A stretch of 63,064 nucleotides of DNA, filler included, from Welwitschia mirabilis (taxonomy: Eukaryota): the NCBI GenBank assembly GCA_051453625.1. It is 7 parts of one record of this genome, joined end to end, with 100 filler letters (N's around TTAATTAATTAA, not from the genome) between each part and the next. Parts side by side here need not be neighbours in the genome. Positions count along the whole stretch, not along the records: positions 1 to 15,845 come from JBOZIK010000001.1; positions 15,946 to 20,844 come from JBOZIK010000001.1; positions 20,945 to 25,894 come from JBOZIK010000001.1; positions 25,995 to 42,244 come from JBOZIK010000001.1; positions 42,345 to 54,634 come from JBOZIK010000001.1; 2 more parts are not named here. One strand, written 5' to 3'. Both the position numbers and the translations under genes were made by a program. A model generated the notes under the pieces. The model worked only from the letters and a program-made list of their open reading frames with translations, searched no databases and was not told the DNA's origin. Below are positions 2,624-54,633 of this stretch, in pieces (the first letter of the stretch is position 1; each line of letters starts with the position of its first letter).

Positions 2624-3718
2624 TGTTAGGATCATTAGGCACCCTAGAAATGGGGGGAGGGGGAGGGGGAGGTGAGTAGGGTGATTATAAAAAATTATTT
2701 TCAATATCGATTAATCTGGATTATTAAAGAAAAATCCGAGAAGCTTAATCACACACAATTGTGAGAGAAAACAAAATGCAAGAAACAACAAAAGAGATTG
2801 TGCACCAGATTTATAATGGTTCGACAAACCTTGCCTGCTCCACTCTCAGGGGGCNNNNNNNNNNNNNNNNNNNNNNNNNNNNNNNNNNNNNNNNNNNNNN
2901 NNNNNNNNNNNNNNNNNNNNNNNNNNNNNNNNNNNNNNNNNNNNNNNNNNNNNNNNNNNNNNNNNNNNNNNNNNNNNNNNNNNNNNNNNNNNNNNNNNNN
3001 NNNNNNNNNNNNNNNNNNNCCTTCAGCCCAATACATCAACAGGTATGAGCAAGATATCCAAATGTGGTAGATATCTCAATGTAGTATAGATTGTATGATT
3101 ACATTAGAGTTTAGCACAATGACCAAATTTTGGTGTAGGCGCTTACAACAATAATTATTCAATCTTTTATAGAAAAGGATTACAAAAATAACTCATGGAG
3201 CCTCAAACTTGAAACCCTAGCCATTTAGCAACCAACCTTGACTATTGGCTCTTAAAAAAATGTTTTCTGATAGCTGCAACAATTATATTTTCGCTCTAAT
3301 GTTCGCTTGTCCGGACATCCCCTTCTTTATTACTAGATGTCCTAGTTGTAAAGCTTGACTTCTATCAAAACTGCAAGGCATCCAGGACGTCCCGGTATAA
3401 GATCCGGACATCCCCATAATAAGGATAGAATACAGGGTCAAATATCCTTGTCCTGTGCTTCAGATGTCCCCATACAATGTTCCCGCAAACAGGTCTAGAC
3501 GTCTCGATATCAAAATTTCTGTGCTTCGGATGTCCCCATGCAATGTTCCCGCAAACAGGTCCGGACGTCTCGATATCAGAACTTGGACGTCCCCATACAA
3601 ATTATCGCGTATAGGGCCAGATGTCCCAATTGAAACAACTTTAAATTTTCTTAATTTTGACTTAGCTTTGTGGACAACGCGGAGACTTTGACATCATTGA
3701 AACTTGTATTCTTCTACA
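2624..3718 (-). repeat. 3' LTR with GGACGTCC palindrome array
   Basis: TG..CA ends on minus strand; PPT at 3719-3731; repeated GGACGTCC variants 3310-3630. Confidence 0.85.
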
Positions 3719-4399
3719 GTCTCCCCCTTTTCAATTATGACNNNNNNNNNNNNNNNNNNNNNNNNNNNNNNNNNNNNNNNNNNNNNNNNNNNNNNNNNNN
3801 NNNNNNNNNNNNNNNNNNNNNNNNNNNNNNNNNNNNNNNNNAAACTTGTATTCTTCTACAATCTCCCCCTTTTCAATTATGACAACCCTGTCCAGGAGCT
3901 TAAGAAGGATGGTGGATTACTACCCTTAAATTTGTACTCCTGGATTGACTTGTTACCTGCAAAATTAATTCAACACACAAATAGTCCTTGCAAATAGTTT
4001 AGTGCAATGGCTTTTTGACAAGATTTGTTGAGGTAAAGTTAATGAAATGTGAGTATATTCGATATGTCAAAGATGAGATAGACTCACGTAATGATATTCC
4101 AGTGAGAGCACAAAAGCATGTGATAAAATTAGCAATTAGAAAAGCCAGTTATTTAAGCTAGCAATCTAAACTTGTCAATTTGAATATCTTCTCCCCCTTT
4201 GTGGTTATTGACAAGTAGAAACATAACACAATGAAAGCATATCTAATAGAAAATGAAACTGATTTCATTACTTGTCAAACTGAGTTACAAAAGTTGAGAG
4301 TTTGATAGTACAATACAAAAAGAGGTATACAGAATGAGATGTACAAAGTACAGAAAGTGATTATGAGAAGAGGAGAGCAAGGAAGAGGAATCATCATGC

Positions 4400-5450
4400 T
4401 CACTTCTTCTTCTTTTTCTGATCTCGGAGGTATCTCTAGTCTATGAGTAGACAAATCAAACACAATTCGATCAACTCTTCTGCACAGTTTGTCTGTCGTC
4501 TTCTGAGCTCTAAGGGCTATTTCTTTTACATCTAAAATTTCCTTCATTGGATCTTCATTATTGATTTGGCTTGTGCTAGTGCCTTCTTCTCTTTGTTGCT
4601 TCTTCTTTGGCAGAGGAGGAGGACCAATGATATCAGAGAGAATATTCATCTTTTTCAGTCAGTAAAGGCCAAGAGGTTTTGGTACCTTTTTACTAGTTCT
4701 TCATCCTTTTAAATTGCAAATTGATGATTTTCCTGGATAGCAGTAATGAGTCCACTAAGAGGTAAGCTTCTATAATCACCACTGATGAACTAACTCATGT
4801 AGAACATTGTGAATTTATACAAATTTATTCTAACACCCCTGCCAAGACAGAACAAAAGATACCCAGACAACGGAAAAACTTCATCTTTGTGACCTAGTTT
4901 AGGCACGAGGTTGTGTGTAGAAATTTGAAATAAAACTCTATATAATGGAGTTAACTTATTTGTAGGTATACTTGCTCTCCACTGAAAATTATACCCACAA
5001 AGTTTAGTTGTCAATACATCTCGAGCCACAACTTCTTTCAAGAAACTCACTGAAGTAGTTTTACAAAAAAAATCCTTCATTTGGATAGCTAGTTACTAAA
5101 GAAAGGATTCAAGATCTACATCTACACGTCTACCATAAAATTTGGTAGTAATGACCCAATCTGTAGATTTAAAATGGGCATTATAATAGAAAAGGCATAC
5201 CATATGTGTAGATGCTTGAGAGTCAGGGCCTAAGGCATATAACCAGCCTTGCTTTTCAAATTTATCTACTATCCTGACTTCCTGCTTGAAAGAGTTATAG
5301 TCAATCTTCCTCTCTGGAGCTAGGGGTCTCTTGTTGAAGCCACTGAGCCAAGCTTTGCGGGGTTCTGGAGATAAAAACCATTCTGACTCTGGCTCTAGTT
5401 CTTTCCCTTTCCTGGGAATGCCAATCTTGCTTCTAGCTATGATGACTCAA
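4400..5450 (-). pseudogene. Env-like accessory ORF, divergent copy
   Basis: LYRVLFQISTHNLVPKLGHKDEVFPLSGYLLFCLGRGVRINL aligns with the other copies; lies between RNase H and PPT. Confidence 0.75.
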
Positions 5451-5856
5451 GAGGAGGGGCTCAGAGGATTCAGAGGAACTCAGAGTAAGGGATGGAATGA
5501 GAGAAATGAATGAAGAAGTCAAAAGTTTGACTTTTAAGCTCATGGATAGCATGGGCATCCTGCTAGGGTTATGTCTGCTAAAGCGCGGACGTCCGGCTTT
5601 CTAAGTGCAGACATCCGGATTATAACAACAAAAAGATATGCAAAGTTGAAGAAGAGCAGACATCCGCTTGAAAAGGATGGGATGTCTGGTTTATAACCAG
5701 ACTCGGGATGTCCTGACATTAATATGGGACGTCCAGGCGTAGATAAAAACCTAAGATAAGGAAACACCTAGAAAACAACAAACACACAAACAACAAGAAT
5801 GAGCACATTAACAGCAATTTTAATGAGGTAAGAGCATACAAATTTTTATTAACAAA

Positions 5857-8800: not shown

Positions 8801-10150
8801 TTCCCGTCATGTGCCTAAAGCGTCCACTATCTAAGTACTATCCCCTTTTTTTTTAAGCCTTAAAGGCAGCATGAGCAAATAGAGATGAAATATGACCTTT
8901 TCTCATCCATTTCTTGGAAACTTGCCTTCTAGAAGGGTTTTGATCTAACGGGGTTTTTCTAAAAAACTTGAAATTGCCGATAGAGTGTCCAAAGTAAGCT
9001 GATTTCTTGTAAGGACAATTAAATTGAATATGCCCATGACTATTATAATAGAAGCATCTTAAACTAGATCTTTCAAACGACTGGTATTGGACACTATGAC
9101 CAAAAGAGTGAAATGTAGGAGTTTTATTGGAAGAGCTTCCTAAACAAGATTTGTCGAGATGGGATCTTCCTACACCTAATAACTTATTTAGATTATCCTT
9201 ACCTTGAGTTAAATGATTGGCAAGGAATCTAGCGTCTTCTTTAGTCAAAGACTCGATTTTCAGATTGACCCTTTTTAAATCACATTCTAGTTTTTTTACT
9301 GATTTTTTATACAAAACATTTTTCTTTCCTAAATCTAGACTAAGCGTATACAAATTTTTGTAAGCTTCAAACAGTTCAACATGGTCAAAATCTAGATCAC
9401 CACATTCTTCAAAAGCGTTTTCTGATTTCTTAGAATCAAAAAAACATTCATCATCAATAGAATTAGAAGAGATAAGGGAACTTACCTCTTCAGTAACCGC
9501 AAGGAGCCCAAAGCTCAAGCCATCTCCTTCATCGCTCGAACTAGCTCCTTCACCATCTGATTCACTCAATGTCCTTACTTTCTTTGATGGCTGTCACTTT
9601 GGGCTTAAACTTCATAGTGAGACTTCTGAGGATTTTGCAAACTACTCTATTCTCTAGAACGTTTTCTCCTAGATCCCATGTGTTGACAATATTGCTCACT
9701 TTTGTGGTGTAGTCTACTACTATTTCAGATTCCTCCATTCTGCTGTTCTCAAATTTTGTTGTGAGGAGTTAGAACTTTGAGTTCTTCACCATGTTGTTTC
9801 TTCATGGGCTACTCAGAGAGTATCCCACATTTCTTTGGCAGTAGAACATTGAACTACTCGATCATACTCTTCATTTGACAAGGAGCAAATGATTGCATTC
9901 ATGGCCCTTGCATTGTTCTAGAGTTTCTTTATGTCATCATCATCCCACTTGTCTCTGGGTTTTACTGATATGATTCCGTTCTCATCAACCTACTTTAGAG
10001 GAGCATAGCCCTGTTCGACCATGTCCGCATGTTTGGATGAAGAGAGGTCAAAAATATTCTCATCTTGGACTTCCAGTGAGGATAGTTGTTTCCATCGAAG
10101 AAGGGAGGCTTTGAAACTGCGTGACTCTCTAGATAACTTGTAGATGCCAT
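5857..10150 (-). pseudogene. Copia gag-pol pseudogene
   Basis: MASTSY..KPPFFDGNNYPHWK gag start; YLDSG protease; GIFLGYS integrase tail; LNKALYGLKQAPRAW and YVDDI RT; CDNTSAI/KHIDIRHHF RNase H; internal gag deletion near 9570. Confidence 0.9.
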
Positions 10151-10192
10151 CAAACCTGTACCTTAAAAAGAGTGTACAGATCTAGAACACCA

Positions 10193-10205
10193 GGCTCTGA
10201 TACCA
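10193..10205 (-). promoter_or_regulatory. Primer binding site (tRNA-iMet)
   Basis: TGGTATCAGAGCC 2 nt inside the LTR end. Confidence 0.9.
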
Positions 10206-11219: not shown

Positions 11220-11233
11220 GGAGAGAGGGAGGG

Positions 11234-12704: not shown

Positions 12705-13550
12705 ATCCATGTCCTTTAATGGGATGTCTGGACCTGTTTTCATCCAAATGAAAAGGGGACGTCCAAGTGATCAACTAGGACGTCTGACCACTCACCCCCT
12801 TTTTTTTGTTTCCTGACAAAGTAAAGTATTAAAACCGGGACCTCCAGATTCTCTAAAAGGGACATTTGGCCAGACGAATGTTGGAGCAGAAAATTGAAGT
12901 TTTTGAACGTTGGATTTAGTATTGCAAGAAGCCAATGGGAATGGAGCTTTGCTGGCACACCAACCAATGTTGAGGGCTCACTATTTGAGACCACAACAAC
13001 TATATTCTTAGCCAGCTTCTGCATAAAAGCATGGAGAACATGGTAGCTAGACATTTGGACATGTACTAAACTTCTAAGCTATCTATTATTGAAAGATACA
13101 CTCTTTTGAGTTGTCACTGCAAACGAAAGTATTTTATTCTCTTAGCTGTTGTACTATCAAGCTAATGTTCAGTGCAATTTAAGGCACTTTATATTTCATC
13201 ATATTCTAATTGTATCACTTTGTTGTATGCTCAGGATTAAGCATTGCAGTAAAGTCCCTTGGAAGAAGGGCATTATAAGGAAGTGAAATCCCTAGGGAAA
13301 GGGTCCTATAAGTTTTGAAGAGCTAAGGGATCTAGGAGGTTGGAAGCTATTGCTGCCCCCTGAAAGTGCAGTAGGTAAAAGGCTGAAGCATTCTAAAATT
13401 CTGGTGTATCCTATTACCTATATTTTGTGATCTTCTATTTTACTTGTTTTATTAGCTATTGTCCTCAAGGGTTGTTTCAGCTTAATTTAATTGAAAATTA
13501 CTAAAAACACCATTTTCACCCGTGTTTAGTGTGCCTTTAGAATCCTAATA
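12705..13550 (+). mobile_element. 5'-truncated degenerate SIRE-type LTR
   Basis: GGACGTCC repeats; conserved hairpin at 13365; decayed TTTTCACCC...ATCCTAATA end. Confidence 0.65.
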
Positions 13551-15845: not shown

Positions 15846-18776
15846 NNNNNNNNNNNNNNNNNNNNNNNNNNNNNNNNNNNNNNNNNNNNTTAATTAATTA
15901 ANNNNNNNNNNNNNNNNNNNNNNNNNNNNNNNNNNNNNNNNNNNNTAATAGGTGCAACGGTGTCAAGAAAAGATATGACTTTGATGGAGAGCGTGTGGCT
16001 GGGGAAGGCAAGGGGACAAGGAACAAAGCCTCAGAGGAAGAGTTGCCAAATGAGGATGAGCTCTTAAAGAATGGAAAGGATTAAAGGAAGTCTTCAATTT
16101 CTTTCTTCTTCTCTTGCTACCAATTTTTGGAGTGCATGTTGTAACGATAAGCCAATGCAACTATCAAACTTAGGCCCTTTTTAGTGACAAAGAGAACATG
16201 TTGATCTAAATTCTTTTTCCTTAGGCATGGAAAGGACAACACCATTCCATTTCTAGGGTGAGGCAAACTAGACTTGTACTAGAGGGCTGCTGGAAATTAA
16301 GTACCCAAAATGGACCATTAAGGTATGGACTAAGGCTTATGAGAAAACCTCACAGAATAAAGGCATTTAAAAGAAATGAAAAAGAGGTAAAGGGATAAGA
16401 GAGGCTAGGACTTCCAAAGAAAGGAGTTATCCTCTAGCTTGCTTCAAAGTATCTATAGTAGAACGGGGTGGAAGAGGTCTTTGGTTTCGGAAGCAAGGTT
16501 CCCAGTGGATCTCTTCCCAAGGCCGAAGTGAAGGTGGTCAAGGTTCTTCAAAAAAGTGGAAGGAGGAGACCCTAGAGGGGTGATCTTCTTCTAATAAAAC
16601 AAAGGGAAATCTCTTACTCATGGAAAGGAGCTTGCCTTAGCGAAAGTCCTTGATTCACTCTCTTTGATTTGCTTACAGATTGTAAGTAACAGAGTATGAG
16701 AAGAAAAGAACGCTTTATTGTAAAACTCTTAACTATTAAAACATTGCCTTTTTTCTGAAGAAAAAGAAGAGGGTATAGATAAGTCTTCGTAAACAAGAGA
16801 GGTAGGGAGACAAATAGAGCATTTAGACATAGAAAAGAGAGAGAAATATTGTTAGACTTAGAGAGATGCATAGATGAACTCTTCACAAGAAGAGAAAATC
16901 TTTTGTCTTCTTCATAAGGGAGAGGAATACTTGTGTGAGGTTGAGATTGTCATATGAGCATGGGAAGGGAAACCTCCAGTTTAACATATTAACATTACGA
17001 GACTAGAGAACGATTGGAAATACAAGAGATTACATTGAGAGGGTCCTTCAACCACAGGGACTACGAAGCAGGAGAGAAAGGGAAAAAATGTTTCTCTTGG
17101 CTCAGGGTAGAGAAGAGGGAGTGATGTGGAGGAAAGGGAAAGGGATGTGATGAGGGGCCCATATAACATCTCTTTGTTGTCTCCGAAGTGGCTGTGACCT
17201 TATGGGGTGTTAACTCCTTGAAGATTAGAGGTCGAAGCGATAGGAGATCGGTTTGGCCCCTGATGGTGTCAGAGGGGATCACCCCACTAGAATAGTAGTG
17301 ACTTCCTTGGTTATCAGGTTTTGGCACTCATCCTATGTTGTAATGTCTCGGGCGGGCTCGTTGGATTTTGGCGCATTCCAAGGATTTGGTGCAAACTTAT
17401 AACTCTTCTAGATCTGTGATACATGAACTTTGATGAAGATGTCCATAGAGGTAGAAACTAGACAATAGAGGCTAAAGAAAGTTGGAATGCACTAGTGCAC
17501 TAGGTTTGCAAAAGGAAGCAACAACTGGAAGAGAAACCTATTTGGCAGGAGGACTGGGTTGGATTCCAAATGAAGAGGCTGGATGAGCCTAAGGAAAGGA
17601 GAGACAGGGTCTTATGCCACACCCAAGGTGTGGAGGTTTTGGATTCGACAGCTAAGGCATCGAATAAGCTTGGATTCCATGTCTTGAGGGTGGAAAGTAC
17701 TAGGTGATAGAACAATGGGAGGGAAGAAGGAGGGAGGAGAAAGCAAAATGAAGAGGAAGGTGAGAAAAGGGTCAATAGATGGAAACTTCAGGCTTGGGGG
17801 TTGAGGGAGATGCTTTTGTCTAACATGAGTCCTGCACTTGGTCTAAATCACTAGAGGAGAAGGCTTCTTGAGCTTTGGAGTCACTTTCTGCCATAACAGA
17901 ATGTCTTCATTTTCGAATTCTAGTCCATAGGAGCCACTGAAAATCTTTTACGTTGCCCAAGGCATGGAAGTGCCTTGGATCCCATGCTGGGCATGGAATG
18001 CTGTGGAGACCCTAGGGGTGAAGGGTGGAGGATGAGGGGATGCAGAAGGGGATAGGAAGGGAAGAATGAAGAAGAAGTAGGAGGTTTGTTTAGTGGAAAA
18101 GAGGGTGGAGGATGAAGGAGGAGGCAGATGGGATGGGATGGGATGAGATCCCCAAGGAGGATGATCAGGTCCAGAGGGGTTTTCTCATTTGACTGGGATG
18201 AGAATGCTAAAGATAGTGCTGGAGGCGAGGGATCAAGATGGTGCTAGAGGTTGGAACTAAGGAGAAATGAAGAGTGCTAGGTTAACGCAGAGGTAGATTG
18301 CAAAGGTGGAGGAAAAATTGTGGGAGAGGATGGGGAATGAAGGAAGGGGAATCTGTAGCAAAGGGAGAAGGTGAAAATGTTTTGCAGAGGGTTGGAGTCC
18401 CATACTTACAATATTGAGTTGTGCATAGACATGGAATAAACCATTTTAATACATATATTACATTATTAACTAAAAGTAATACATCAATTTAGTAATAAGG
18501 TTTTACAGATAATGTACTTGTTTAATTTAAACAAAATATGGCAGGTAATAGTTATAATAATGAGAACGATAGTGAATTTACAAGTTTTAATTTTTAGATG
18601 TCAATAAATGTAATGGCACTTAGATTCCTAATAATTGCTTATCTTGTTTACATTATCTCAAAAACAAATGAGATTTGCTGTCTGTATATTGTCAAATTTC
18701 TTCCCTGTTTAGGGTCTACTTCTGTTAATATTATGTTTAGGGTCTATTTCTGATAATATTATTCTATTGTTTGCAG

Positions 18777-20544: not shown

Positions 20545-20844
20545 TCGAAGAGAACAGAGGAGGTCTAGATATCGATTGAGCTTCTGAGAAATTTGAAGAA
20601 GCCATCAAACCTGCAAAACACAATATGCAAAAGAACCCTAGACTAGAGCAACCAGGCTCAGATACCAATTGTTAGGATCACCAAATACCCTGGGGGGGTG
20701 AATAGGGTTCTAAAAATTCTTTCAACAAACAACTAGACAATATAAAATATAAATAACAAATGCACTATACCGATTTATAGTGGTTCGGCTCTCCAAGCCT
20801 ATTCCACTCACAAGAGGCAGCAAAAGCTCTTCAGCCTCTTGGTT
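20545..20844 (-). mobile_element. SIRE-type 5' LTR end, PBS and truncated gag start
   Basis: LTR end at 20670; PBS 20655-20667; MASSNFSEAQSISRPPLF from 20605. Confidence 0.85.
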
Positions 20845-20944: not shown

Positions 20945-23156
20945 TACATAAGAAGGTAGATCGGATGGTATTTGGCCTTTCAGCTTTTGGCCTAGATATT
21001 CCTTCAGAATCAGAAGAGGAATTCGCCCCTAGAGATCTTGTTTCTTCTTCTCCTCATGATGAATTCTCAGATTAGCCTCCTTTTTTTTTCTCTCAGTCAC
21101 TCTTCTTCTCTCATTTTGTATCCTCCTCTATATCTTCCATCCCTCTTGTTTTGCGTTTTCAATGATGACAAAGGGGGAGAATATCATGGGTGTAAAATAT
21201 CGCTTAACTAATTGAACCTTTTTCTGCTTTAAAAAATCTATCTTGTTTTGGTTATCAAATGATTTGTATAATTTCTCATTTTATGTTTTGTATGAGCATA
21301 ATTCAAATCCTGTGTCTTTTTCAATTATGAACTAACCCCAGGAATATATACATATATATATAAACATAAAGGTTTCTTATTGTAGTATGTTGTTCTTTTT
21401 AAGCTTATTGAACAAGTAAAGCTCATGGTGATCAAGTTGCTGGACTAAGGGGGAGCATCTCCTGCATCAATAATTTTGTCATCATTGAAAAGGGGGAGAT
21501 TGTTGAGAACAAATATATTGCAATGATGAAGTCGACAAAATTATTCTCAGGTCAAAGTCAGCTCAAACCTGGAAAAGCGAAATCTGTCAAGAAATCTCAG
21601 AAAACTACAGAAATATACTAGGACGTTCGACCATTAGTCTGGGGACGTCCGACCCTGTACTCGGTAAAACATACTGGGATGTCCGACCATCAGTCTTGAG
21701 ACGTCCGACCCTGTACCCGGTGAAACATACTGGGACGTCCGACTCTCAACCTGGTACTGAGACGTTCAACTTTGTTTTTAGGACGTCCGAACCTGTTTCA
21801 GAATACTTGTAGAATACTGATTACAACTGGGACGCCCGACTTTTTAACTTGGGACGTCTGATAGGCTATCCGTTCGCATGCGGAAATAAGCGAAAACGAA
21901 CGTTGGACACTCATATCAAAACGCAAACGGCTAAGAAAAGGCCTGGCATGGCCCTGCAATCTATATAAGGGTTCTCAAAAGAGTCTCCTCAATAGAACAT
22001 CTATAAATATGCCTTTCAAAGATTGTTAGAACACCGAATTGTTGTACAAAAGAGGAAAACTTGACTCTGTTGTAAATGGAGAATCATTCTACTCCAAACT
22101 GCTGAAAATCAATCTCTCCACTTGTATGTAATGTTGATGTATCAAAGCTAGGAGGCTTACAAATNNNNNNNNNNNNNNNNNNNNNNNNNNNNNNNNNNNN
22201 NNNNNNNNNNNNNNNNNNNNNNNNNNNNNNNNNNNNNNNNNNNNNNNNNNNNNNNNNNNNNNNNNNNNNNNNNNNNNNNNNNNNNNNNNNNNNNNNNNNN
22301 NNNNNNNNNNNNNNNNNNNNNNNNNNNNNNNNNNNNNNNNNNNNNNNNNNNNNNNNNNNNNNNNNNNNNNNNNNNNNNNNNNNNNNNNNNNNNNNNNNNN
22401 NNNNNNNNNNNNNNNNNNNNNNNNNNNNNNNNNNNNNNNNNNNNNNNNNNNNNNNNNNNNNNNNNNNNNNNNNNNNNNNNNNNNNNNNNNNNNNNNNNNN
22501 NNNNNNNNNNNNNNNNNNNNNNNNNNNNNNNNNNNNNNNNNNNNNNNNNNNNNNNNNNNNNNNNNNNNNNNNNNNNNNNNNNNNNNNNNNNNNNNNNNNN
22601 NNNNNNNNNNNNNNNNNNNNNNNNNNNNNNNNNNNNNNNNNNNNNNNNNNNNNNNNNNNNNNNNNNNNNNNNNNNNNNNNNNNNNNNNNNNNNNNNNNNN
22701 NNNNNNNNNNNNNNNNNNNNNNNNNNNNNNNNNNNNNNNNNNNNNNNNNNNNNNNNNNNNNNNNNNNNNNNNNNNNNNNNNNNNNNNNNNNNNNNNNNNN
22801 NNNNNNNNNNNNNNNNNNNNNNNNNNNNNNNNNNNNNNNNNNNNNNNNNNNNNNNNNNNNNNNNNNNNNNNNNNNNNNNNNNNNNNNNNNNNNNNNNNNN
22901 NNNNNNNNNNNNNNNNNNNNNNNNNNNNNNNNNNNNNNNNNNNNNNNNNNNNNNNNNNNNNNNNNNNNNNNNNNNNNNNNNNNNNNNNNNNNNNNNNNNN
23001 NNNNNNNNNNNNNNNNNNNNNNNNNNNNNNNNNNNNNNNNNNNNNNNNNNNNNNNNNNNNNNNNNNNNNNNNNNNNNCTAGTTTAAATCGTTTTTGCAAA
23101 AAGAAATTTGAAGAACCCTATTCACCCCCTCTCGAGGGTATTCGGTGATCCTAACA
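20945..23156 (+). mobile_element. 3' part of SIRE-type element: multi-PPT region and LTR (21501-23156, gapped)
   Basis: AAGGGGGAG tracts at about 21171, 21448 and 21490; TGTTGAG start; GGACGTCC array; ATTCACCCCCT..GATCCTAACA end. Confidence 0.85.
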
Positions 23157-23344
23157 ATTTATAGTGGTTCGACAATCCTTGCCTACTCCACTTACAGGAG
23201 CAGCAATGTTCTTTCAGCCGCGTACATGGTTAGACATCCCGACTGAAACTTTGGACGTCCTGGATTGCACAACTTCTGATTTGCACAATTTTTGGTAATG
23301 CCACTACCTATCCTTCATCATCATTGAAACACTGGATACGACGA

Positions 23345-27483: not shown

Positions 27484-29025
27484 TATTGAGTTAATATTTG
27501 CCAATTTGATGTCAAACTAATGATTTCTGTTTAGCAAAACATGTTGTATTCTGTGTAGAAAATACTAATCATTGCAGGTCAGAAGCTGAAACAATTTGTG
27601 ACAATTTGAACCTGAACCTGTCACGTTATCATACCGTCTTGCGGAGTCAACCGCACCTGAAGCTTACACAGGAATGAACTGAATTTAGAGGGGTGGACCG
27701 GACACATGAAGGGTCGATCGGACCTATAGATCTAATACTTCACAGTCGATCTTTAAGGGGTTGATCATATTCCTGAGGGATCGACCGGACCTATCCATCC
27801 AATATTTCTCAACTGAACATCAAGGGGTCAACTGGGCTTTTGAGGGGTTGACTGGACCTAAGCATCAAACTTTCACAGCCGATCGTCAAGGGGCCGACCA
27901 GATTCTTGAGGGGTCAATCGGACTTGGAGTGATGTTTTCACCCTTTACCAGCAAGGGGTCGACTCAATATTTATGGGGNNNNNNNNNNNNNNNNNNNNNN
28001 NNNNNNNNNNNNNNNNNNNNNNNNNNNNNNNNNNNNNNNNNNNNNNNNNNNNNNNNNNNNNNNNNNNNNNCCGGACTCTAAGGGGTCGACCGAACATAGA
28101 GTCGTAAGAAACAGGGGTCAACTAGAAGAACATGAGGGCGACCGATTACAGTGAAGACATCAGATGGGGTCCACCGAACGTTTCGAGGGGTTGACTGGTC
28201 GTGATGGAAATGGGATTTTGTTAGCCATTGGCCTCTTGTTTTTATCCGGTGGAGAATATAATTCACTTAGAAAACCCTAAAATGTATCTCTTATATATTT
28301 GTCAGCCATCAAAATCATTGTATGAATCTTTTCGGCACATCTTCNNNNNNNNNNNNNNNNNNNNNNNNNNNNNNNNNNNNNNNNNNNNNNNNNNNNNNNN
28401 NNNNNNNNNNNNNNNNNNNNNNNNNNNNNNNNNNNNNNNNNNNNTGCCAAGAGTCAAAATCACCACAGCACTTTTTGAATCATTTGTAATAATTCGTTGT
28501 ACTCATTGGCACGTTCTTTACCTGACCAAAGATGAACCGAGAGCTGTTGTTATCATTGTGTATGTGGTCAAAGTCGCATTATACGCTTTCGGATTGTACC
28601 ATCTTCTCAAGTAGTGTAGTAATACTATTTCTTGAGCCAAAGATCGAGTGAAGCTTGTGCATTTCGATACACCATCGTCACCGCTTCACTTTCTTGCTAA
28701 AGGTTGAGACCGAGCCTCAGAAAAGTCTGATTGTAAAGCTTATAGGTGAACTTGAAACACCTGGAAAGATATTAACGGAGATTCGGATTAGGCTTGGATA
28801 GAACCTGGTCGTTGACAGTGGAGTAGGGGGTTTCCCGAACCACTATAAATCTTGTGTGCTTCCTATTTGGTATTTCTGTGCTTTCTGTTCTTTATTTTGC
28901 AGAATAGTTTTAATTTTATTTGCACACATATTTTAGTGTTTATTTCCAGTAAAGATAATTTTTGTGAAGTTATTTAATTATTTTTAAATCCTATTCACTC
29001 CCCCTCTAGGATTTTCGATCCAACA
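27484..29025 (+). mobile_element. 3' LTR of a second SIRE family with GGTCGACC palindrome array
   Basis: PPT AAAGGGGGAGAT immediately upstream; GGGGTCGACCGGA variants 27690-28200; ATTCACTCCCCCTCTAG..CCAACA end. Confidence 0.85.
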
Positions 29026-31629: not shown

Positions 31630-34500
31630 CATCCTGTTTTTTTCAGAAGTCCAAGTTCAAGAAGTAAGTTCTTTTCTTTCCATCTTGTTTTCTTCTCTCC
31701 CTTCAATTTTCCTTTTGTGCTTCTCCTCTTCGTTTCATATTCCATCATGCTAAGACAAAAGATTCTAGTCCAAGGAAAGAGAGAGGCAAGGACAAAGAAG
31801 CAGAACCAGTTTTTGTTTCTTTCAGAGTAAAGGCCATGTGGACCTAGAGCTTTAACAAGAAGTCTCTCACTCTCGAAAGGGTCATTTTTCACAATACATT
31901 CAGGCAATTACTCAATCTGTTGCCCAGGTTAGAAGAGCTCAGTTGGACTTACATTTTAAACCCTTATACACATGCTCTTCTAGATCTAGTTCACATGTTC
32001 TATTGCAATAGGTCATTTCAATCTGAGCAAAACCAGCTTGTTTCAAACTTGTATGGTGTTGATATCGAGGTCAACCTAGAAATGATATCTTGTGCTACTG
32101 GTTTTCCGTTAGAAGGAGCAGAATATGTGCATGTTACTTTAGTTTCAGTTCTAAACCTTTTGTTCCTAGGGATGAACTCATGGAAGTTTTATGTGGAAAA
32201 CAAGAGGCTTGGAGGACAACTAGACCCACTTGCATTTAAAGCCTGCTTTACAAGGTGCTTTTTAGAATTATTTCTAGCAATCTTATTCGTAAGCTCAAGC
32301 ATATGGATGAGGTTTGTCCTTTATGTGCATATGTAATGTACTGTTATGCTAGAAGCATTCAAATTAATTTATCTTAGATGATATTACAAAATATGGCTTC
32401 ATGCACTTCAATGGGTTCAATAGCTGTGCCATATGGTGGTTTAATTACTAAGATGTGTCATAACAAGGCAACGTTACCTAAAGTAAAAGATGAAATTCTC
32501 AAATTGCCCAAGCCATTTGATGAGTCCTTCTTTGTCAGAATGAAAATCGTCAAAGGCTCTGCTCCTCCAAATCTTTGTTCCCCCCTTTCGAGGTATTTCA
32601 AGCGTACGTGATTAGGTGAAACTTCTCAAGGCACATCAGCTACAAAAAAATGGATTAAGAGGATTTCCTCACAGCTCTCCAAAATCGAGAAGGCTCTTGT
32701 GGACTTTGGATTGGAAATGGCAGATCTTCCTTTTAGTCATGTCTTCCTGATGATCTTTATCTACCTTGTTCCTTCATGTGTCAATTTGTGTTCCCCTTCT
32801 ATTGTTCTTTTCCTGTTGTTCTTTTTGTTAGCTTCTGTGTGTTAGTTGTTGTGTCTATGCTCCTATGTATGATAAACTTTGAACGATATGTAATTAAATT
32901 TTTGCTATAATTAATATAAATTTCTCTTATGCTCTTAGTTTGGTTATAGTCAACATTTATTTTCTGTACATATGCTTTTTATAGGTATCTTCTGTTTATT
33001 GTTTCGTATACAAGGTCAATGATGCCAAAAGGGGGAGATAACTATCTACCAAAATGCCCAAAGTGTGCTTCATAAGGGCATCAACTTAAGGGTGAGTAAA
33101 TCTAAGCCTCAAGGGAAGATACATTATGGGTTTATGGATTATGAAAATATCACTTTCAAGGGCAGTTTATTGTTTCTTAAAATACAAAAAGGCATGGGTT
33201 CTATCATCATTGAAAAAGGGGGAGGCTATAGATTAAAAGATTTCAATGATGCCACTAGAATGAAGTTGATAGAAAAATATCGCCATGTGCATGATCAACA
33301 TGCTCATCACCCTTTGCCAAAACACGTGGATGATCTAAAAGTTGGCAATCTTCTATCTGAGTAAGTCATTTTCGTGATGAACATCCAAGATACTTAAGTA
33401 CGCCAGATGTCCTCAATCAATAAAGCCCAGACGTCTCCTCTTCTCGCAGTCAGATTGCATGGAAGTGGCCTGCTTATAGGTGCAGACATCCCCACCCAAA
33501 CAAGGCGGATGTCCCCACTTAAATAGGCCGAACGTCCCCTCTCCTCGTAGGAAAAATGTATGAGACTGCTGTATAACAGGTGCGGATGTCCCCACTCAGA
33601 AAGCCTAGACGTCCCAACTCTTTTCGGGCTTTTGGTATGAGAAACTAAACCACCGAGAGGTGCAGACGTCCCCACTCAAGTACCCTTAATGTTCCCCCTC
33701 CTGTCGCGATCTTTTAACGAGAGTTTGCATCTTTCACAGTTGCAGATGTCCCTGCCTCTCAGAAGTGTAGACGTCTGCACCTAATGGTTCAGACATCCAC
33801 CCTCTTCAATTGTGGACATCCCCCTTATTTAAGGGCATACGTCCCTGCTCTTGGACCATTGCAAAATGGTCATCTTCAATGAAATGTGTGACGATTTTCC
33901 ACAGTCACTTTTTCTAGCACGATCTTTGAGGCTGATTCATGGAGATTATTCCTTGGGGGTAGGCTTAGATTGGCAAAAAAATCAAATAATATCTAAAATC
34001 AAGAGATCTTGGAAATATCAATTTGTCTATTTTCTAACAACTATATTTGATCTTCTATAAATGATGGAAAGTTATTCATTTATTGCTGATGATCTTTTGT
34101 GAACAGTGACTTGACCGTGGATATTATTAACAAAGTGTACCTATCTTGTGTGATCTATCTGTACTGCATTCTACTCATCGTATCTGTGCTTGAGGCACCT
34201 TTCTCTTACCTTTCCTTCTTAATGTGGTTGAGTCTCAGCCATCAAAAGACTCTAAACTGTACTTAGTTGATGATAAGCCTGAAGTCATCACTGTTGTAAA
34301 GGGTTGATGATCAGCTAGAAAATCATCAGCTGAAGAGATTTAAGGAAACCAGGGAAGAAGTCATCTATCTCTCCTTGAAGAGTGGAGTAGGCACATTGCC
34401 AAACCACTATAAAATTTCTTGTGTGCTGATTATTTTCTTCTTTGCATTGCTTTCATATTAATATTCATTTGTGTAAAGCTGATTAACTTTGATAAGGGCT
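31630..34500 (+). mobile_element. 3' part of SIRE-type element: env-like ORF (31747-32720), PPTs, LTR from 33227 (3'-truncated)
   Basis: Env-like peptide; AAAAGGGGGAG at about 33027 and 33215; GACGTC palindrome array 33400-33850. Confidence 0.8.
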
Positions 34501-48094: not shown

Positions 48095-48459
48095 TATTGG
48101 AAGTGAAGCCAAATCTCTCTAAGTTATTTATTCTTTTGTAGTTTGACTTTATATATTTTTATATAGTCCCGTTGTTGTTGTAATTTAATATTAANNNNNN
48201 NNNNTAGAAGTTAGGGTTAGGGTTTCTACCCTAAAAGAAAATCTATATAAAGAGAGTAGAGGCATGGAATGCCACAATGTGTATGGGAGTCGAGAGTTGC
48301 AATATTGGCTATTGATGACGACTTGTGTCCTTACCCTTTTTCATTCTAAGAGAGAGCTCAGCACTGCTTCCATGGTTTTTCCCCACACTGTGGTTTTCCC
48401 CATAAATCTAGTGTGTTGATTTTTGCATTTTGCTTTTGCTCTGATGCATTTTTCTAACA
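48095..48459 (+). mobile_element. Small copia-type solo LTR
   Basis: T(A)TTGG...TAACA ends; CTATATAAA; GGTTTTCC..ATAAATCTAGTGT; TSD GCATC/ACATC. Confidence 0.7.
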
Positions 48460-48632
48460 ACATCATCATTCAGGTCTTCTTCTTCTTTCTACTCAACTCC
48501 TCCTTGAGTTTGCCCTAGTGCATCGTCTGTGTGCCTTCTTGATGTGCGAAGGCTACACTTTTCATTACTCTTCATATTAACCAGAACATGCTATAGAAGT
48601 AGCTTTTGCACTAGACTGCGGGGAATGTCTTG

Positions 48633-49140
48633 CTAAGCAAGAATTCTAGCCTCTGTTTGGATCCTTCTTTGGTGAAGGAGCCAAATGAGGCCTTTATGCC
48701 TCACGTTTTCGCTGTCAAGAGAATAATATAATAAATCTGAAAGGTAGAAAGGGAGATCTATTTGAAACTTATACATCATAACTGCAAAAAAGTGGAAATG
48801 AAAGCTTGTTGATTTTGTCAAAGTGGCCCTCCAAAGTGAAATATTTCATGATGAGTGCTGCCCATGCATCAAATAGGCAAGGGAGATCCTTCCTCTTGTA
48901 ACTGCCACTTTGTTTCTTGCGAGATTTACCTATAAGATTCTCAAACTGTGAAACAATGGACGCTTTTGGGGCTCTTCTCTTAAGCTCTATTCCTTGAGGC
49001 CCTGTCCGAATAGCATCCCTAATAGAGGCAATATCAATGAATATAGTAGTGTTACCTATGTAGGAAGATCTGCCATTCCAATTTCTACAAATCTAGATCA
49101 TGCTTTCTCTAGTTGAAAACATATGGAGCCCATCCCGCTG
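48633..49140 (-). pseudogene. Frameshifted retrotransposon accessory-type ORF of unknown function
   Basis: About 100 open codons WNGRSSYIG...LIMKYFTLEGHFDKI, continuing after a frameshift as HFHFF..IDLPFYL..HKGLIWLL. Confidence 0.55.
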
Positions 49141-50779
49141 TTTGGAATTGTTCCTCTGTTTGCCCATGGTTGAGAAGAACGTCGTGCTCTGCTGGCTCAA
49201 TGTGGAGTGCCTTTCCTATGTCTTCTAGATATGGATGTGATGTAAACACTCTACAGTTGCATGGTGTAGAGACTCTCTGCTACAGTTGAGAAGGATGTCG
49301 TGCTTTGAATGGCTCCCTAAACCAGATTTGTCGAGGGGTGATCTTCCCATACGTAATAGTTGGTTGAGATTGTCTTTCCCTTGAGTCGATCTTTCAGCAG
49401 TCCTTCTAGAATCCTGTAAATCTTTAGATAGTTCTTCTACTTTATTGTTAGCTTCCTTCAATTTTAGCTCTAGGCCTGAAATTTGTTTTTTGAAGGAAAA
49501 ATTTTTCTTACCAAGTTCTAGATTGACTTTATACAACTTCTCATAGGCATCAAAAATGTTATTATCATCAGAATCGCTGTCAATTTGATTTTTAGTTTCT
49601 GAGCATACCTGAGTTTGTTCATTACATGGATTGGAGCTGATGTGCTCTGGACTTTGCCCTTTATCAAGAAAGGCCACTAGCCCAAAGTTCAAGGGTTTTT
49701 CATCATTTGATCGGGCTTCATCTTCTGAATCATCATACCATGTTGCTTTGAGGGCTTTCTTTTCCTTGAATTTGGGCCTTTTTTACTTTTTCTTGTTAGC
49801 ACATTCTGATACAACATGCCTAAATCCCTTGCACTCGTAACATTGAATTGATGAAGAGGGATTCTTGCGTTTGTCACTTGTTCTTTAAAGTTCTCCTTTC
49901 AAGTTCCTGCTTTCTTTCTTCTTTTTGAGGAACCTCTTGAAATTCTGTGTTAGCAAGGATAAATCATCATCTTCTTCGTAATTACTTGATGTTTTTACTT
50001 CATGATCATTGCTTGCTTTAAGAGTGATACTTTTCTTCTTGGGCATCACTTCTTCAGGAAGAAGGGTAGCTTCATAGGTTATTAAAGATCCCTTCACTTC
50101 TTCAACTCTCATCTTGTCGATCTCTTTGCTTTCTTCAATGGCAGTGATCTTTGTTCTGAACTTTGCAGTCAGGCTCCTAACGATTTTTCCTACTACTATG
50201 TTTTCTAGGACTCTTTCTCGTAGCCTCCACATGTTGTTAACGATGTTGCTGATTTTCGTGGTGTATTCTGCCATAGATTCTGATTCTTCCATTCTGATGT
50301 TCTCAAATTTGGTTGCTAAAAGTTCTAGCTTTGAGTTCTTAACAATATTTGTTCCTTTATGAGTTGCCTTCAATGTGTTTCGCATGTCTTTTACAGTTCA
50401 ACACTGAACTACTTTGTCATATTCTTCAGTGGACAAGGTGCAGATGATAGCATATATTGCCTGAGCATTAATTTGGATTATTTCTCATCATTCGAATCCC
50501 ATTTGTCTTTGGGCTTTGGCACCACATTCCCATTCATATCAGTTTCTGTTGGAGGTGCATAACCATGCTCCACTGTAGCCCAAATATTAGGATTCAGGGA
50601 AGTTAGGAAGATGCTCATTTTGGATCTCCAATAAGCATAATTGCTACCATTGCAAAAGGGGGGTCTAGAAATAGCTTACTTTCTGGATACCCTGAAAAGT
50701 TTGAGCATGCCATGAAATCTGTACCTGCACTTAAACAATAAAATGTACAAATCTAGAGCAACCAGACTCTAATACCAAT

Positions 50780-51808
50780 TGTTAGGATTTTGAGGCACCC
50801 TAGAGGAGGGGTGAATAAGGTTTTATAAAAATTTTGCAATATTAGTACTTCAGAACATGAGATTAATAAAATGAACGATGAGACTAATAACAAAAAGAAC
50901 TTTGAGAGGACAAGACAACAATCAAGTGCACTAAGATTTTATAGTGGTTCAACCAAGACTACTTCACTCTCAGGGGGTAAAAACTGTTATCAGCCTCTTG
51001 GTTCCCTTATCACCAAAGCTTGTATATACACCAAGCCCTTTTACAGGAAGCTTTTTACTAGCCTTCAAGCCAAGCTCAACTCTTTGAGCTTCTTACAAAG
51101 TGGTTTTGTCTAATGGTATAGTGCCTAACTATTAGCACAATATATTAGCTTTGAATACACAACAATAGATCTTCTGAAGAAGAAGTATTTCACAGTGAAG
51201 TACAGAAGATTTGAATGATACAAGTTTAGCACAGAGCGATTCCAGAGTAGTGTATATTCTTATTGAACATCAATGTGATATCTCATAACAAGAATAATTA
51301 CATATTTATAGAGATCTACAAAAACTAGTTGTTAAGGTCTTCGTAAGATGTGCTGTAGTTGATGTGCCAAACCAGAAAAGGACCATCGCTACATTGAAAT
51401 CTTCAAACTGGCGTCTTTAACGACTAAATTGCCGTGTCAACGGGCACAAGGCTGGACATCCCATCGATGAGTCTCAATCATCCCAGTTTTAATATTCTAA
51501 AACCTGATCGACTGAATATCTCCAAGCGTCCTAGTTTTACAGGGCAGACATCCCCATATAAATGATTGAATACAGATCTGGACGTCTTGGATTCATTGGG
51601 TGGGCATCCCAATAGAAATTACTGAGTACAGATTCGGACATCCCAGTTTCAAAGGATGGACATCCCCATAGAGAAAACCGAGCACAAGGTCGAATGCCCC
51701 GATTGAAGAGGGTGAACGTCCCAATATTGATGAAAGCTTAGTTGTATTCGTATTGATTATTTCTTGATTTTGTATCTTATCTTATCATTGAAAACACGTT
51801 CTTCAACA
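50780..51808 (-). repeat. Complete SIRE-type LTR (1029 bp)
   Basis: TG..CA ends; adjacent PBS; decayed GGACGTCC array 51450-51725. Confidence 0.85.
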
Positions 51809-52980
51809 CTCTTCTTTTCTCTGTCGTAAGTGCAAGGATCAAATCATGAGAAAATGCATCCCAAAATGGGAACAACTAACAAATTTTACATCTTTATCAT
51901 GAGGGAGTTTGTAGAGGACACCTTAGTGGAAAGAAGATAGCTATGAAAATCCTTCATGTTGGATTCTATTAGCCTTCTTTATTTTCATGGTTGTTTTAAA
52001 TGTGTCAAGAAATGCGAGGCTTGCGAAAAGTTTGGAGGTTTGACTTGTAAGGAAGACATGCCACTTCAACCTATTACAGAATGTGAACCTTTTGATTATT
52101 AGGGAATTAACTTCATTCAACATTCAAACCCTCCATCTTATGGAATGAAGTACATTCCTGAAGCCATTGATTACATAATCAAGTGGGTACAAGCCCCTTG
52201 ACTGTTTGTTGATTTGTTTTCTTTTGTTTTGGCTTTCCTGTACTTCTTATAAGCATCAAGGGACTCATTTTATCAATAAGATTCTTATGAAACTCCTCTT
52301 ACAAGTTAGGATTCAACATCATGTTGCCAATGCTTATCATCCACAAAGAAACGGTCGAGTTGAAAATGCTAACATGAAATCAAGCAAACACTTCAGAAAG
52401 CTATTAGCTCTTTATATCAAAATTGGGCTTTGACACTTGATGGTGTCCTTTGGTCTTGTAGAAACAGTTGGTGAAATTCACTTAGCTTCTTTTCCTATGA
52501 ATTAGGCTATGGTAAATCCTGTGTGCTTTTTGTTAATATTGCTTTTTGCTTTATGACTTGCCATACTTTGAACTTATCTAATCTAGAATTTAATATCTAA
52601 GACCACCTTGCCAGATTCAACACTTTGGTGAAAAAGAGAACACAAGCTATTACTCGACAATTTATCGCTAAAGCTCTAGTAAAGTATTAGCATGATAAAT
52701 GTATTCGACCTAAACATTATGAACTTGGATTGCTCATAGTCCTCTTTAACAACAATGCTAATATGATTGACAATAAGCTTATGTCTAGGTGGTTAGGGTC
52801 TTACCATGTTCAAAAAATCCATTCTCATGGGTCAGTTTCGATTCAAGATCTTACCATCCATGAAACCTTCATGGGACAATGCTTACAATCTTATTTTAAT
52901 GATGATCTTCTAAGACAAGATTCCAACTTAGTGGAAGAACTACACTTGATAACCCCTTGCAAGAGGAGCATTACTTATTG
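51809..52980 (+). pseudogene. Gypsy integrase remnant
   Basis: CKDQIMRKCIP, KCEACEKF, AIDYIIKWVQA, QGTHFINK, AYHPQRNGRVENAN, KLMSRWLGSY. Confidence 0.8.
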
Positions 52981-54353
52981 ATCACCTAAAATCTTTAATA
53001 GAAAGGGGAGTGGTGAATAAGCATTGTCCCTTCAATCTCTTCTAAGGGAAATTAACTTTTATTTTTAATCTTCCCTTGTGACAGGTAACTTGTGTAGGTG
53101 CACACTACTTAGAATTAGTTCACTTGAAGTTATAGATTGGAATTGATCTTATATGGTGCTTCTACTGAGTTAGATTCATTTCACAAGGAGTGTTAAGTTA
53201 TTTACTTCAAAAAGGAAGAATGCAACAACATCATCTGGTCGATACCTTCTTAGAGGTACGCTAAACCCGCTCATGGTTACAGTCTTTGAAGCACTAGTTA
53301 TGGTGTGTCTTGGGCAACACTTATCTCTTGGGAATGCCATGCTAATGCAGGTAAATGCTTAACAGATGGATTCTCAACCCATAGTCTCTACAGAGTCTAT
53401 GGAATGGTTTGACTGTGTAAGAAGGAATTGCAAAGTAGGTTGCTGAGATGTATCATTCGTTAGGAGCATAATGGTTTAGCCTCGTCCTATCGGCGAAACA
53501 TGCCTGTGTAATTCACTATAGCCTCAAATGGTTGCTTATGAAGTAACTGACCTTCAATGTCTTCAATCTGACTCAATGAAGAGGTGAAACCATATTGAAC
53601 TAATAAGTGGTGTACTCCAAGCTAGCTATTTACGCCCAAGGGTGTCTTGATCAATGTGGAAGGCTTCCCTTGCAAGTTGATTACCCTTTATCTATTCTTA
53701 GAAGGACGTCTGTTTTCATTTCTACTTAATCTCATCATAAAGTTAGTTGCACTAAGTACTGTAATTTAGCTAATTCGTTTCTTAGTTTGGTTAATTGCCT
53801 TAGATAGGAAATGTTTTTAGTATCAACATCATTCAACTCCTTTCACTTGATGCCCAAGATCATCAAAATCTGGAGTGTGCTTTATTTCTTAAAATACATA
53901 ATCTTTGCAAGTTCTTAAATCATCACCACTTGTGGTCGCCTAGCTACTCAAGTAGTAATTACTTGATCATCACTACTATATTGCCTAGTGACTTACAGAG
54001 CAATGATCATCGCATCCGATCACCATTACTACTTGTGTCGTCTAGTGACGTAGGCAACAATGGGCATTGTTATCTTGCAAACATTGTTACTTATAGTCAC
54101 CCAACAACATCCAATGACACATTGTGAGGTTATAAACTGTCGCTCCTCCATTTTCAAACTCGTGTTTCCTTTGTTTCACTCATGCATCAGTAGTGCTTAA
54201 TACCTTGAAGCGACTTTCAAGTGACCCTAAGAAGCACAATTCTCTAACATCAAGTAAGTTTCTTCCTCTCTATCTATAGATTTTCATATTGCAACTTGCA
54301 TTTCTTTGCCTTGATTCGCAACAGCTTTCTTTTCTTTACAAGTTTCTTTTCCT

Positions 54354-54633
54354 TGTTAAGATCAAAAGGCACACTAGGGGTACAAATAGGGTATTTTAAA
54401 ATTGTTTTACAATAACAGAATTTTAGATCTAAAAACCAATGGAAATAAAATAGGAGAAACAAGAATAGAAGCAAAAGACAAGTGCACTAGTTTTATAGTG
54501 GTTCGGCAATCCTTGCTTACTCCACTCTTAGGGGGCAACAACGTGCTTCCAGCCTCTTGTTTCCTTTAAAACACTGAACAACTTGGGCACATCACAACAC
54601 CTGTCTCTAAGGGTTACAATCCACTCCTTTCAC
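54354..54633 (-). mobile_element. SIRE-type LTR 3' end, cut by gap
   Basis: TGTTAAGATC..AATAGGG; conserved hairpin 54497-54526. Confidence 0.75.

Follow-up and report, generated by a model that had tools for sequence, protein, structure and literature searches.

Does a short hairpin that recurs in the retrotransposon repeats of one plant locus represent a structured RNA signal, or a piece of promoter DNA that merely has the capacity to pair with itself? The question is raised by a stretch of the genome of Welwitschia mirabilis (assembly GCA_051453625.1, record JBOZIK010000001.1), 63,064 bases in length including 5,265 N and referred to here as the window, which is a mosaic of degraded long terminal repeat (LTR) retrotransposons. 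A first-pass annotation of this DNA had listed eight LTR copies of a hairpin with an AGTA/GAA internal loop, and had interpreted it as an R/U5 RNA element with a sarcin-ricin/loop E fold. The analysis reported here shows that all eight sites are instances of a single conserved module, found at the 3′ edge of the U3 region of Sirevirus-type Ty1/copia LTRs, and that this module, in this genome as in other plants, is made up of two adjacent hairpin-forming dyads ending exactly at the LTR TATA box. In what follows, the hairpin reported initially is designated HpB and the hairpin directly upstream of it HpA. Our preferred interpretation, held tentatively and at somewhat less than even chance, is that the module works in single-stranded form.

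Eight copies of one module in Sirevirus-type LTRs

Re-reading of the window located all eight quoted sequences, letter for letter, at their coordinates and on their strands (Table 1). The full pattern AGTGGARYA-N8-16-RAACCAYTATAAA has 6 matches in the window and none in 100 shuffles; the 9-mer AGTGGAGTA alone, with one mismatch permitted, has 18 matches against 11.4 expected, which is not significant. A covariance model trained solely on 40 distinct plant LTR sequences from metagenome contigs, with no window copy among them, gave exactly these eight sites as its top 8 window matches, seven of them with E-values from 5e-9 to 0.037 and the copy at 2815 with an E-value of 0.77. Since the next window matches have E-values of at least 1.3, the initial list of eight copies is complete at the sensitivity of the model, which also indicates a single module per LTR. 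The distance from motif to LTR end, put at about 110-190 nt in the first-pass annotation, measures 109-191 nt across the six copies whose LTR end can be recognised.

Metagenome contigs were scanned once with the same pattern, in which the outer stem and the loops were fixed (except at the R and Y sites) and the interior was left free. This yielded 92 loci, 75 of which are, as judged by their flanks, plant LTRs carrying the module. Their layout is that of TATAAA, GTG, a CT-rich tract, a T-rich tract, a C-rich signal and the LTR end, followed in some cases by a primer binding site (PBS), and they bear out the earlier claim that a conserved hairpin-capable cis element of SIRE-type copia LTRs is found in other plants as well. 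The 17 further loci, about the number estimated beforehand, are unrelated chance matches and served as controls. No motif match was obtained in a viral contig collection, and Rfam gave no match at the gathering threshold in the window and none at E <= 1 in 7 metagenome LTR loci.

The elements that carry the module are assigned to the Sireviruses because of their PBS junction, their polypurine tract (PPT) octamers, their C-rich end signal and their conserved TATA box. According to the text of Bousios et al. 2010 (PMC2829016), Sireviruses can be recognised by a CA/ATTGG/TATCAGAGC junction, by multiple copies of the PPT octamer, by a TATA box that is conserved, and by a C-rich “integrase signal” situated some 21 bp from the end of the LTR. 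Two 5′ LTRs of the window show the CA/ATTGG/PBS junction (Table 1), with 1-3 PBS mismatches relative to TATCAGAGC. The PPT octamer AGGGGGAG has 15 window matches against 0.9 expected, in same-strand clusters of 2-3, although this count includes some matches that are the C-rich signal read on the opposite strand. Of the 6 copies whose LTR end is recognisable, 5 have a run of 4-7 C located 25-45 nt ahead of that end, and the Sirevirus TATA form cTATA(A/T)A(T/A)A is represented by CTATAAA in 7 of the 8 copies and by CTAAAA in the copy at 13365. If the last PPT of a cluster is taken as marking the LTR start, the LTRs are estimated to be about 1.1-1.5 kb long, with the TATA box at about 85-88% of their length. 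The coding regions of the window are degraded, and no tRNA genes were found in it. The AGGGGGAG clusters, at 3721/3863/4191 (-), 21172/21448/21491 (+), 26386/26447/27474 (+) and 33030/33217 (+), fit the “multiple PPT” hallmark.

Table 1. Copies of the two-hairpin module and associated LTR features in the window (positions along the whole stretch).
Feature	Position (strand)	Details
Module copy 1	28772..28849 (+)	HpA 28772-28815, 7-bp arms, 30-nt apical part; HpB 28817-28844; TATA 28844-28849
C-rich “integrase signal” and LTR 3′ end (..CCAACA), copy 1	29000..29025 (+)	181 nt past the motif
Module copy 2	34339..34413 (+)	HpA 34339-34379, 8-bp arms; HpB 34381-34408, 3′ loop AAA; TATA 34408-34413; best model match, E 5e-9
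Module copy 3, 5′ LTR	20774..20841 (-)	HpA 20811-20841, 8-bp arms; HpB 20779-20808, 5′ loop AATA; TATA 20774-20779; whole-module folding z -4.0
Sirevirus 5′ LTR/PBS junction, copy 3	20656..20670 (-)	LTR end CA (20670), ATTGG, PBS TGGTATCTGAGC 20656-20667
Module copy 4	23158..23192 (-)	HpB 23163-23192; TATA 23158-23163; LTR broken off a few nt past TATA by an inverted LTR end
Module copy 5	54492..54570 (-)	Interrupted HpA ~54527-54570; HpB 54497-54526; TATA 54492-54497; LTR end 54354
Module copy 6	2810..2844 (-)	HpB 2815-2844, AGCA loop, CCATT arm; TATA 2810-2815; upstream part lost in N block; LTR end 2624
Module copy 7, decayed	13331..13397 (+)	Interrupted HpA 13333-13362; HpB 13365-13392, outer pair G-C to C-G; degenerate TATA CTAAAA
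Module copy 8, decayed, 5′ LTR	50938..51003 (-)	HpB 50943-50968; TATA 50938-50943
LTR/PBS junction, copy 8	50766..50780 (-)	LTR end CA (50780), ATTGG, PBS TGGTATTAGAGT 50766-50777

Past the TATA box of the copy at 23163, the sense strand enters, at 23117-23157 (-), the reverse complement of a Sirevirus LTR 3′ end (the C-rich signal and ..CTAACA, both backwards); the LTR of this copy is thus truncated by an inverted LTR end. The blocks of N at 15846, 20845, 25895, 42245, 54635 and 61292 each consist of 44 N, 12 letters and 44 N, and two such blocks lie just upstream of HpA, in the LTRs of the copies at 20779 and 54497.

Position of the module at the TATA box

The 3′ arm CCACT of HpB and the TATA box CTATAAA have one T in common, so that the copies read CCACT directly followed by ATAAA, that at 13365 alone being degenerate. 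The string “(A/C)TAAA” noted earlier after the motif is indeed present, and its identity is corrected here: it is the rest of the TATA box, which overlaps the 3′ arm by this one T. Counted over 47 distinct LTRs, the sense strand between +10 and +30 after TATAAA has pyrimidine contents of 81% and 78% in its two 10-nt bins, compared with 46% upstream of the TATA box and about 48% in the 17 chance matches. Such a sense-strand patch agrees with the plant-specific, direction-sensitive Y Patch, which according to the text of PMC2094075 peaks around start sites. A conserved TATA box is a described feature of Sirevirus LTRs (text of PMC2829016), and in the text of Benachenhou et al. (2013, PMC3601003) the TATA motif is given as the most conserved feature of the Sire and Retrofit LTR models, with TATA-box function cited for BARE-1.

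Because the motif ends at the TATA box, the pyrimidine patch follows, and the LTR terminates within the distance measured above, the module is assigned to U3, some 35-65 nt upstream of where transcription is expected to start, as judged from core-promoter motifs and the literature. The R/U5 placement of the first-pass annotation is not supported, as a motif that stops at the TATA box, with the pyrimidine patch 10-30 nt later, lies upstream of the expected start. Judged from the same core-promoter motifs, the module does not lie between the transcription start and the poly(A) site, as an element of the R region would. The 5′ end of the RNA would consequently lack the motif, whose only copy in the transcript would be that in the U3 of the 3′ LTR. 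Since the module is in U3, any role in RNA must sit at the 3′ end of the transcript and not in the 5′ leader. No usable mapped Sirevirus start sites were found in the literature searched; the rapid amplification of cDNA ends described in the text of PMC5838962 concerns another element.

The TATA-proximal hairpin

In HpB, the outer stem AGTGG/CCACT is essentially without variation; above it come AGTA and RAA, which are unpaired, then an inner stem 2-5 bp long and an apex that is free to vary. The outer stem taken alone is weak evidence for a hairpin, because some 5-bp complement accompanies about 15% of TATA-like sites. The inner stem is more informative. It averages 3.4 closing pairs in the window, whereas 2000 shuffles give a mean of 0.75 and never exceed 2.25; across 33 distinct metagenome interiors the mean is 1.82, with 0.80 for shuffles (which reach 1.70 at most) and 0.71 for the 17 chance matches. 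Its length is 3-5 bp in the window, but most other plants have only about 2 bp. Of the 40 sequences in alignment A2, 32 form the first inner pair; the second is G-C in 17, A-U in 12, G-U in 4, C-G in 1 and unpaired in 6, and 31 leave the third unpaired. The length of the interior ranges from 11 to 15 nt, and the spacing of the arms varies by 4-5 nt. The earlier claim that the stems change in sequence and yet still pair therefore stands for the inner stem, of which 3-5 pairs are kept in the window; for the outer stem it comes down to the copy at 13365.

When folded alone as RNA, 4 of the 8 copies (28817, 34381, 20779 and 23163) adopt the outer stem, 4x3 loop and inner stem as their minimum-energy structure, and the copy at 54497 gives the same fold with the first inner pair open. 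The copies at 2815 and 13365 fold in a shifted form, and that at 50943 does not fold. Single-copy folding z-scores are modest (-3.5 to +0.8).

Six window copies have AGTA as their 5′ loop, one has AATA and one AGCA; on the 3′ side, seven have GAA and one AAA. Of 40 distinct metagenome LTRs, 36 carry AGTA, 3 AATA and 1 AACA in the 5′ loop, which puts A at the “bulged G” position in 4; their 3′ loop reads AAA in 28 cases and GAA in 12. The letters of the window would be compatible with an S-turn of the kind proposed initially; neither the frequent AAA nor the A or C sometimes found at the G and U positions establishes or excludes it. CCAAT-like (ATTGG) and W-box-like (GGTCAA) strings were also seen by eye in the HpB apex, in few families only, and do not provide a general description of it.

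The upstream hairpin and pairing across the module

In nearly all plant copies a second hairpin, HpA, ends 0-3 nt before AGTGG. By a strict definition (stem of at least 7 bp including G-U, loop of 3-6 nt, spacer of 0-1 nt), HpA is present in 15 of 31 distinct LTRs compared with 1.2% of shuffles; among the chance matches 0 of 17 reach 7 bp and one reaches 6. By a loose definition (stem of at least 5 bp, loop of at most 16 nt) it is found in 33 of 40 LTRs, compared with 6 of 17 chance matches and 37% of shuffles. As read from lists, the 15 strict stems comprise at least five unrelated arm sequences. The arms of HpA are wholly different between families, and in some are exchanged with one another (CTTG..CAAG against CAAG..CTTG), with loops of 3-30 nt. 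In the window, three copies have clean arms of 7-8 bp around an apical part of 15-30 nt.

Alignment A2 shows that 85% of HpA cells are paired and that 6 of 7 pairs are altered on both sides. One of these pairs is C-G in 23 sequences, A-U in 6, U-A in 2 and U-G in 3, from which it follows that compensation of the transversion type occurs. For the structure as a whole, 85.5% of cells are paired compared with 81.9% in column shuffles, none of 500 shuffles reaching 85.5%. When the partners are slid relative to each other, only 27-51% of cells pair, and the covariation score, 0.258 for the proposed structure, is at most 0.133.

Two further sequence patterns were noted in these U3 regions. The palindrome AAGCTT recurs at 51016, 51048, 28651 and 28736 of the window, twice each in the LTRs of the copies at 50943 and 28817, and at position 123 of the metagenome locus L079; it may be the local counterpart of the palindromic repeated motifs published for Sireviruses. 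The metagenome LTRs L007 and L047 contain a perfect three-unit heat-shock-element pattern, GAAnnTTCnnGAA, in the 30 nt before AGTGG, which runs from the HpA loop through the 3′ arm to the first A of AGTGG and is found nowhere else in 24 kb of loci. A reading of HpA as a heat-shock element fits only 2 of 32 distinct LTRs and was discarded.

RNA reads across the motif

Four RNA-seq runs with the same species label, from two studies, were aligned to 48205-54634 at a likeness of at least 85%. The motif is covered by reads in all 4 runs, with 67-75 reads at 50951-50964 and 257 at 54517 in run X2, and reads run on across the hexamer. The majority read letter differs from the window at four motif positions of the copy at 50943 and at one of the copy at 54497, and in each case the read letter pairs in the model. 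The motif is thus present in RNA preparations; from unstranded partial reads, neither the strand nor the transcript start nor the poly(A) site is readable.

Some reads join both LTR copies (50990-54527) across a stretch of 16-22 letters that fits neither, and which is the variable apical part of HpA in expressed relatives. The deepest RNA-covered stretch, with about 240 reads per orientation class in X2, is the unrelated short copia-type LTR end at 48205-48461 (+). Its own CTATATAAA is preceded, at a distance of 9 nt, by an inverted telo-box-like dyad (TTAGGGT / TACCCTAA), and reads of relatives pass from the end of the stretch into TGGTATCAGAGC.

Possible function of the module

Use in single-stranded form is suggested by the fact that both HpA and the HpB inner stem conserve pairing and not sequence, with loops of variable length. 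A TATA-abutting two-hairpin U3 module working in this form is the likeliest of the readings considered, though we put it forward with reserve. In each replication cycle such a form would arise as the U3 copy that the genomic RNA carries near its 3′ end, together with its cDNA, about 30 nt before R. There, two hairpins with a purine-rich AGUA/RAA internal loop could provide a protein-binding platform right against the UAUAAA hexamer. Control of 3′-end formation would be the most plausible role: the module might keep the TATA-derived hexamer from serving as a premature poly(A) signal, or might act as an upstream element recognised only in the 3′ LTR. Aid to first-strand transfer would be a less likely role. 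The same DNA is the promoter-proximal region from -35 to -100.

It is tempting to go further and to propose that Sirevirus RNAs of many plants carry this U3 two-hairpin element right against a UAUAAA hexamer, and that a true loop E/sarcin-ricin-type internal loop in its TATA-proximal hairpin binds a host or Gag protein and governs 3′-end formation or strand transfer. We consider this extended version unlikely. If it were true, a replication-grade RNA signal would be hidden within what was read as promoter DNA.

Several observations weigh against single-stranded use. With respect to HpB, the invariance of the outer stem and loops in the metagenome set is built in by the search pattern, and outer-stem covariation in the window amounts to the single G-C to C-G flip at 13365. 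A 5-bp complement within 14-29 nt was found at 47 of 314 TATA-like window sites from which the true copies had been removed. As to HpA, 4 of 7 window copies have no contiguous stem of at least 5 bp and show interrupted stems only, and if loops of up to 30 nt are permitted, 8 of the 17 chance matches also reach stems of at least 6 bp. Whole-module folding is weak (mean z of -0.63 in 46 LTRs against -0.26 in the 17 chance matches), and RNAalifold on a plain MAFFT alignment recovers the outer stem only. G-U and A-C mismatches on the sense strand, which are non-independent counts, stand at 37:20 in HpA and 17:14 in the inner stem, a mild sense-strand lean. The potential to form stems is also raised 80-120 nt further upstream (5.0-5.1 against 4.3 in shuffles), and other palindromes are present in these U3 regions. 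With regard to transcription, the start site, and hence the U3 assignment, is founded on core-promoter motifs and the literature. The RNA libraries are unstranded, and 2017 of the 2407 aligned reads in X2 fit in part only, because they originate from paralogs alike in the conserved patches; the alignment of the four runs to 48205-54634 reported no sites at which read starts or ends accumulate. Finally, the role in 3′-end formation is one that we infer, and zero spacing to the TATA box would be equally natural for a promoter element acting at the DNA level.

Such a promoter element is the nearest rival, a possible explanation though on the unlikely side. The sequence AGTGGAGTAG and RAACCAC would then be protein-binding boxes beside TBP/TFIIB, the hairpin potential a by-product of dyad-symmetric sites, and the dyads the TATA-proximal end of the palindrome-rich cis-regulatory region described for Sireviruses. 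HpB adjoins the TATA box without spacing in every copy, its conserved parts are contiguous sequence blocks, and the mismatch counts given above are nearly balanced between G-U and A-C. Palindromic motifs upstream of the conserved Sirevirus TATA box have been read as cis-acting regulators (texts of PMC2829016 and PMC4728375), and the raised upstream stem potential and additional palindromes in the U3 regions analysed here fit this known palindrome-rich region (PMC4728375). The dyad before the TATA box of the unrelated copia LTR at 48205-48461 and the perfect heat-shock-element pattern across HpA in 2 of 32 LTRs point in the same direction. However, HpA arms that are unrelated between families and sometimes swapped in orientation, around loops of 3-30 nt, speak against it, and compensatory transversions such as the C-G, A-U and U-A states of a single pair are not predicted by a dimeric DNA-binding protein. 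The variable spacing of the HpB arms also argues against a DNA-level element, and no known plant cis-element was identified that fits all copies, CCAAT-like and W-box-like strings being apparent by eye in subsets.

Pairing without a selected function is decidedly less probable. In this explanation the conserved blocks were kept as flanks of the TATA box, and the inverted repeats arose by mutation, e.g. by template switching of reverse transcriptase in a palindrome-prone U3, and were tolerated. The frequency of chance 5-bp complements at TATA-like sites, the weak folding z-scores, the general richness of U3 in inverted repeats, and an inner stem reduced to 2 bp in most other plants would all be expected. 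The fixed position of HpA, 0-1 nt before AGTGG across unrelated stems and at the excess over shuffles given above, is not, and neither are compensatory changes that include transversions, nor reads of expressed relatives that carry pairing letters where the decayed copies mismatch.

The least probable reading, with only a slight chance of being correct, is that of the first-pass annotation, i.e. a structured R/U5 RNA with a sarcin-ricin/loop E fold in which TATAAA is the poly(A) signal and transcription starts upstream of the hairpins, as for the TAR and poly(A) hairpins in the R region of HIV-1. UAUAAA-like hexamers can act as plant poly(A) signals. Folding yields AGUA/GAA between helices, in the sarcin-ricin orientation, as the minimum-energy structure for 4-5 of the 8 copies in the window, a conserved GTG follows the hexamer by a few nt, TATA-like strings lie about 60 nt upstream of AGTGG in two window copies, and RNA reads cover the motif and cross the hexamer, but the hexamer stands in a CTATAAA context that is treated as the TATA box of Sire, BARE-1 and Tnt1-type LTRs (texts of PMC2829016 and PMC3601003), the sense-strand pyrimidine patch typical of plant start sites comes after it, A/T-rich poly(A)-like strings are found further downstream, just before the C-rich end signal, and, as regards the S-turn itself, AAA prevails in the 3′ loop of the metagenome LTRs, a few of them have A at the bulged-G position, and AATA and AGCA loops occur in the window.

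Comparison with known systems

The two-hairpin module can be set beside both RNA and DNA elements. The sarcin-ricin signature is 5′-AGUA-3′/5′-GAA-3′, with AGUA on the 5′ strand, a helix below, and a short helix and loop above. At the level of sequence, HpB resembles it in strand signature and orientation and in its predicted flanking helices, and differs from it in having AAA for GAA in most other plants and some A or C at the G and U positions.

In HIV-1, the trans-activation response (TAR) and poly(A) hairpins lie in R, and U3 contains an upstream enhancer of polyadenylation. The likeness to the module lies in hairpins close to a poly(A)-like hexamer in the LTR and in a U3-only element that lets the 3′ LTR be told from the 5′ LTR; the difference is that the HIV-1 hairpins are in R, whereas the module lies upstream of a promoter TATA box. 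Among yeast LTR elements, the bipartite PBS of Ty3 in U3 and the CYC5/CYC3 sequences of Ty1 are signals of U3 or the 3′ untranslated region that act in RNA during reverse transcription. Ty3, in likeness to Sireviruses, also has a short PBS. The Sirevirus PBS is 9 nt long according to the text of PMC2829016. No complement of the conserved block was seen by eye in 5′ leaders of about five distinct 5′ LTR/leader types, this being a visual comparison with no duplex computed.

The closest published counterparts are found within the Sireviruses themselves. The TATA region of Bousios et al. (2010) is alike in element type, host kingdom, cTATAAA context and the conservation of a short motif across otherwise unalignable LTRs, and the same CA/ATTGG/PBS junction, PPT octamer and C-rich end signal occur in the elements described here (text of PMC2829016). 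The main text of that paper deals with the TATA box only, and the words “hairpin” and “stem-loop” do not occur in it. Unlike the region described there, the conserved block reported here is hairpin-forming and reaches upstream of the TATA box by about 30 nt for HpB alone and by 70-100 nt once HpA is included, and the TATA box lies at the estimated 85-88% of the LTR as opposed to “approximately in the middle”. Motif-string and topic searches, which covered text only, found no description of the dyad or of a loop E reading in the literature; of 33 papers containing one of four motif strings, the 15 listed did not concern plant LTRs, judging by title and abstract, and the alignment in Figure 5A of PMC2829016 may show the conserved block.

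The palindromic repeated motifs of Sireviruses, or RM boxes, are likewise dyads upstream of the TATA box with family-variable sequence and predicted RNA hairpins, as described in the texts of PMC2829016 and PMC4728375. These published motifs are high-copy tandem repeats with a CGG-CCG core, located in GC-rich islands and ending on average 37 bp before the TATA box. HpB has the dyad symmetry upstream of the TATA box and lacks the high copy number and the CGG-CCG core: it is single-copy in each LTR and AT-moderate, its arms are AGTGG/CCACT, and it abuts the TATA box.

Sireviruses make up a large share of many plant genomes, and their few ultra-conserved non-coding motifs, namely the PBS junction, the PPT, the end signal and the TATA box, serve to find them and to reason on their life cycle. 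Seen as a 70-100-nt module of two hairpins, one of them covarying, the conserved TATA region adds a testable cis element to this set and raises the question of whether promoter-adjacent U3 acts at the RNA level in addition to the DNA level. Both the TATA region of Sirevirus LTRs and their palindromes have been published before, and the two-hairpin module extends the conserved TATA region.

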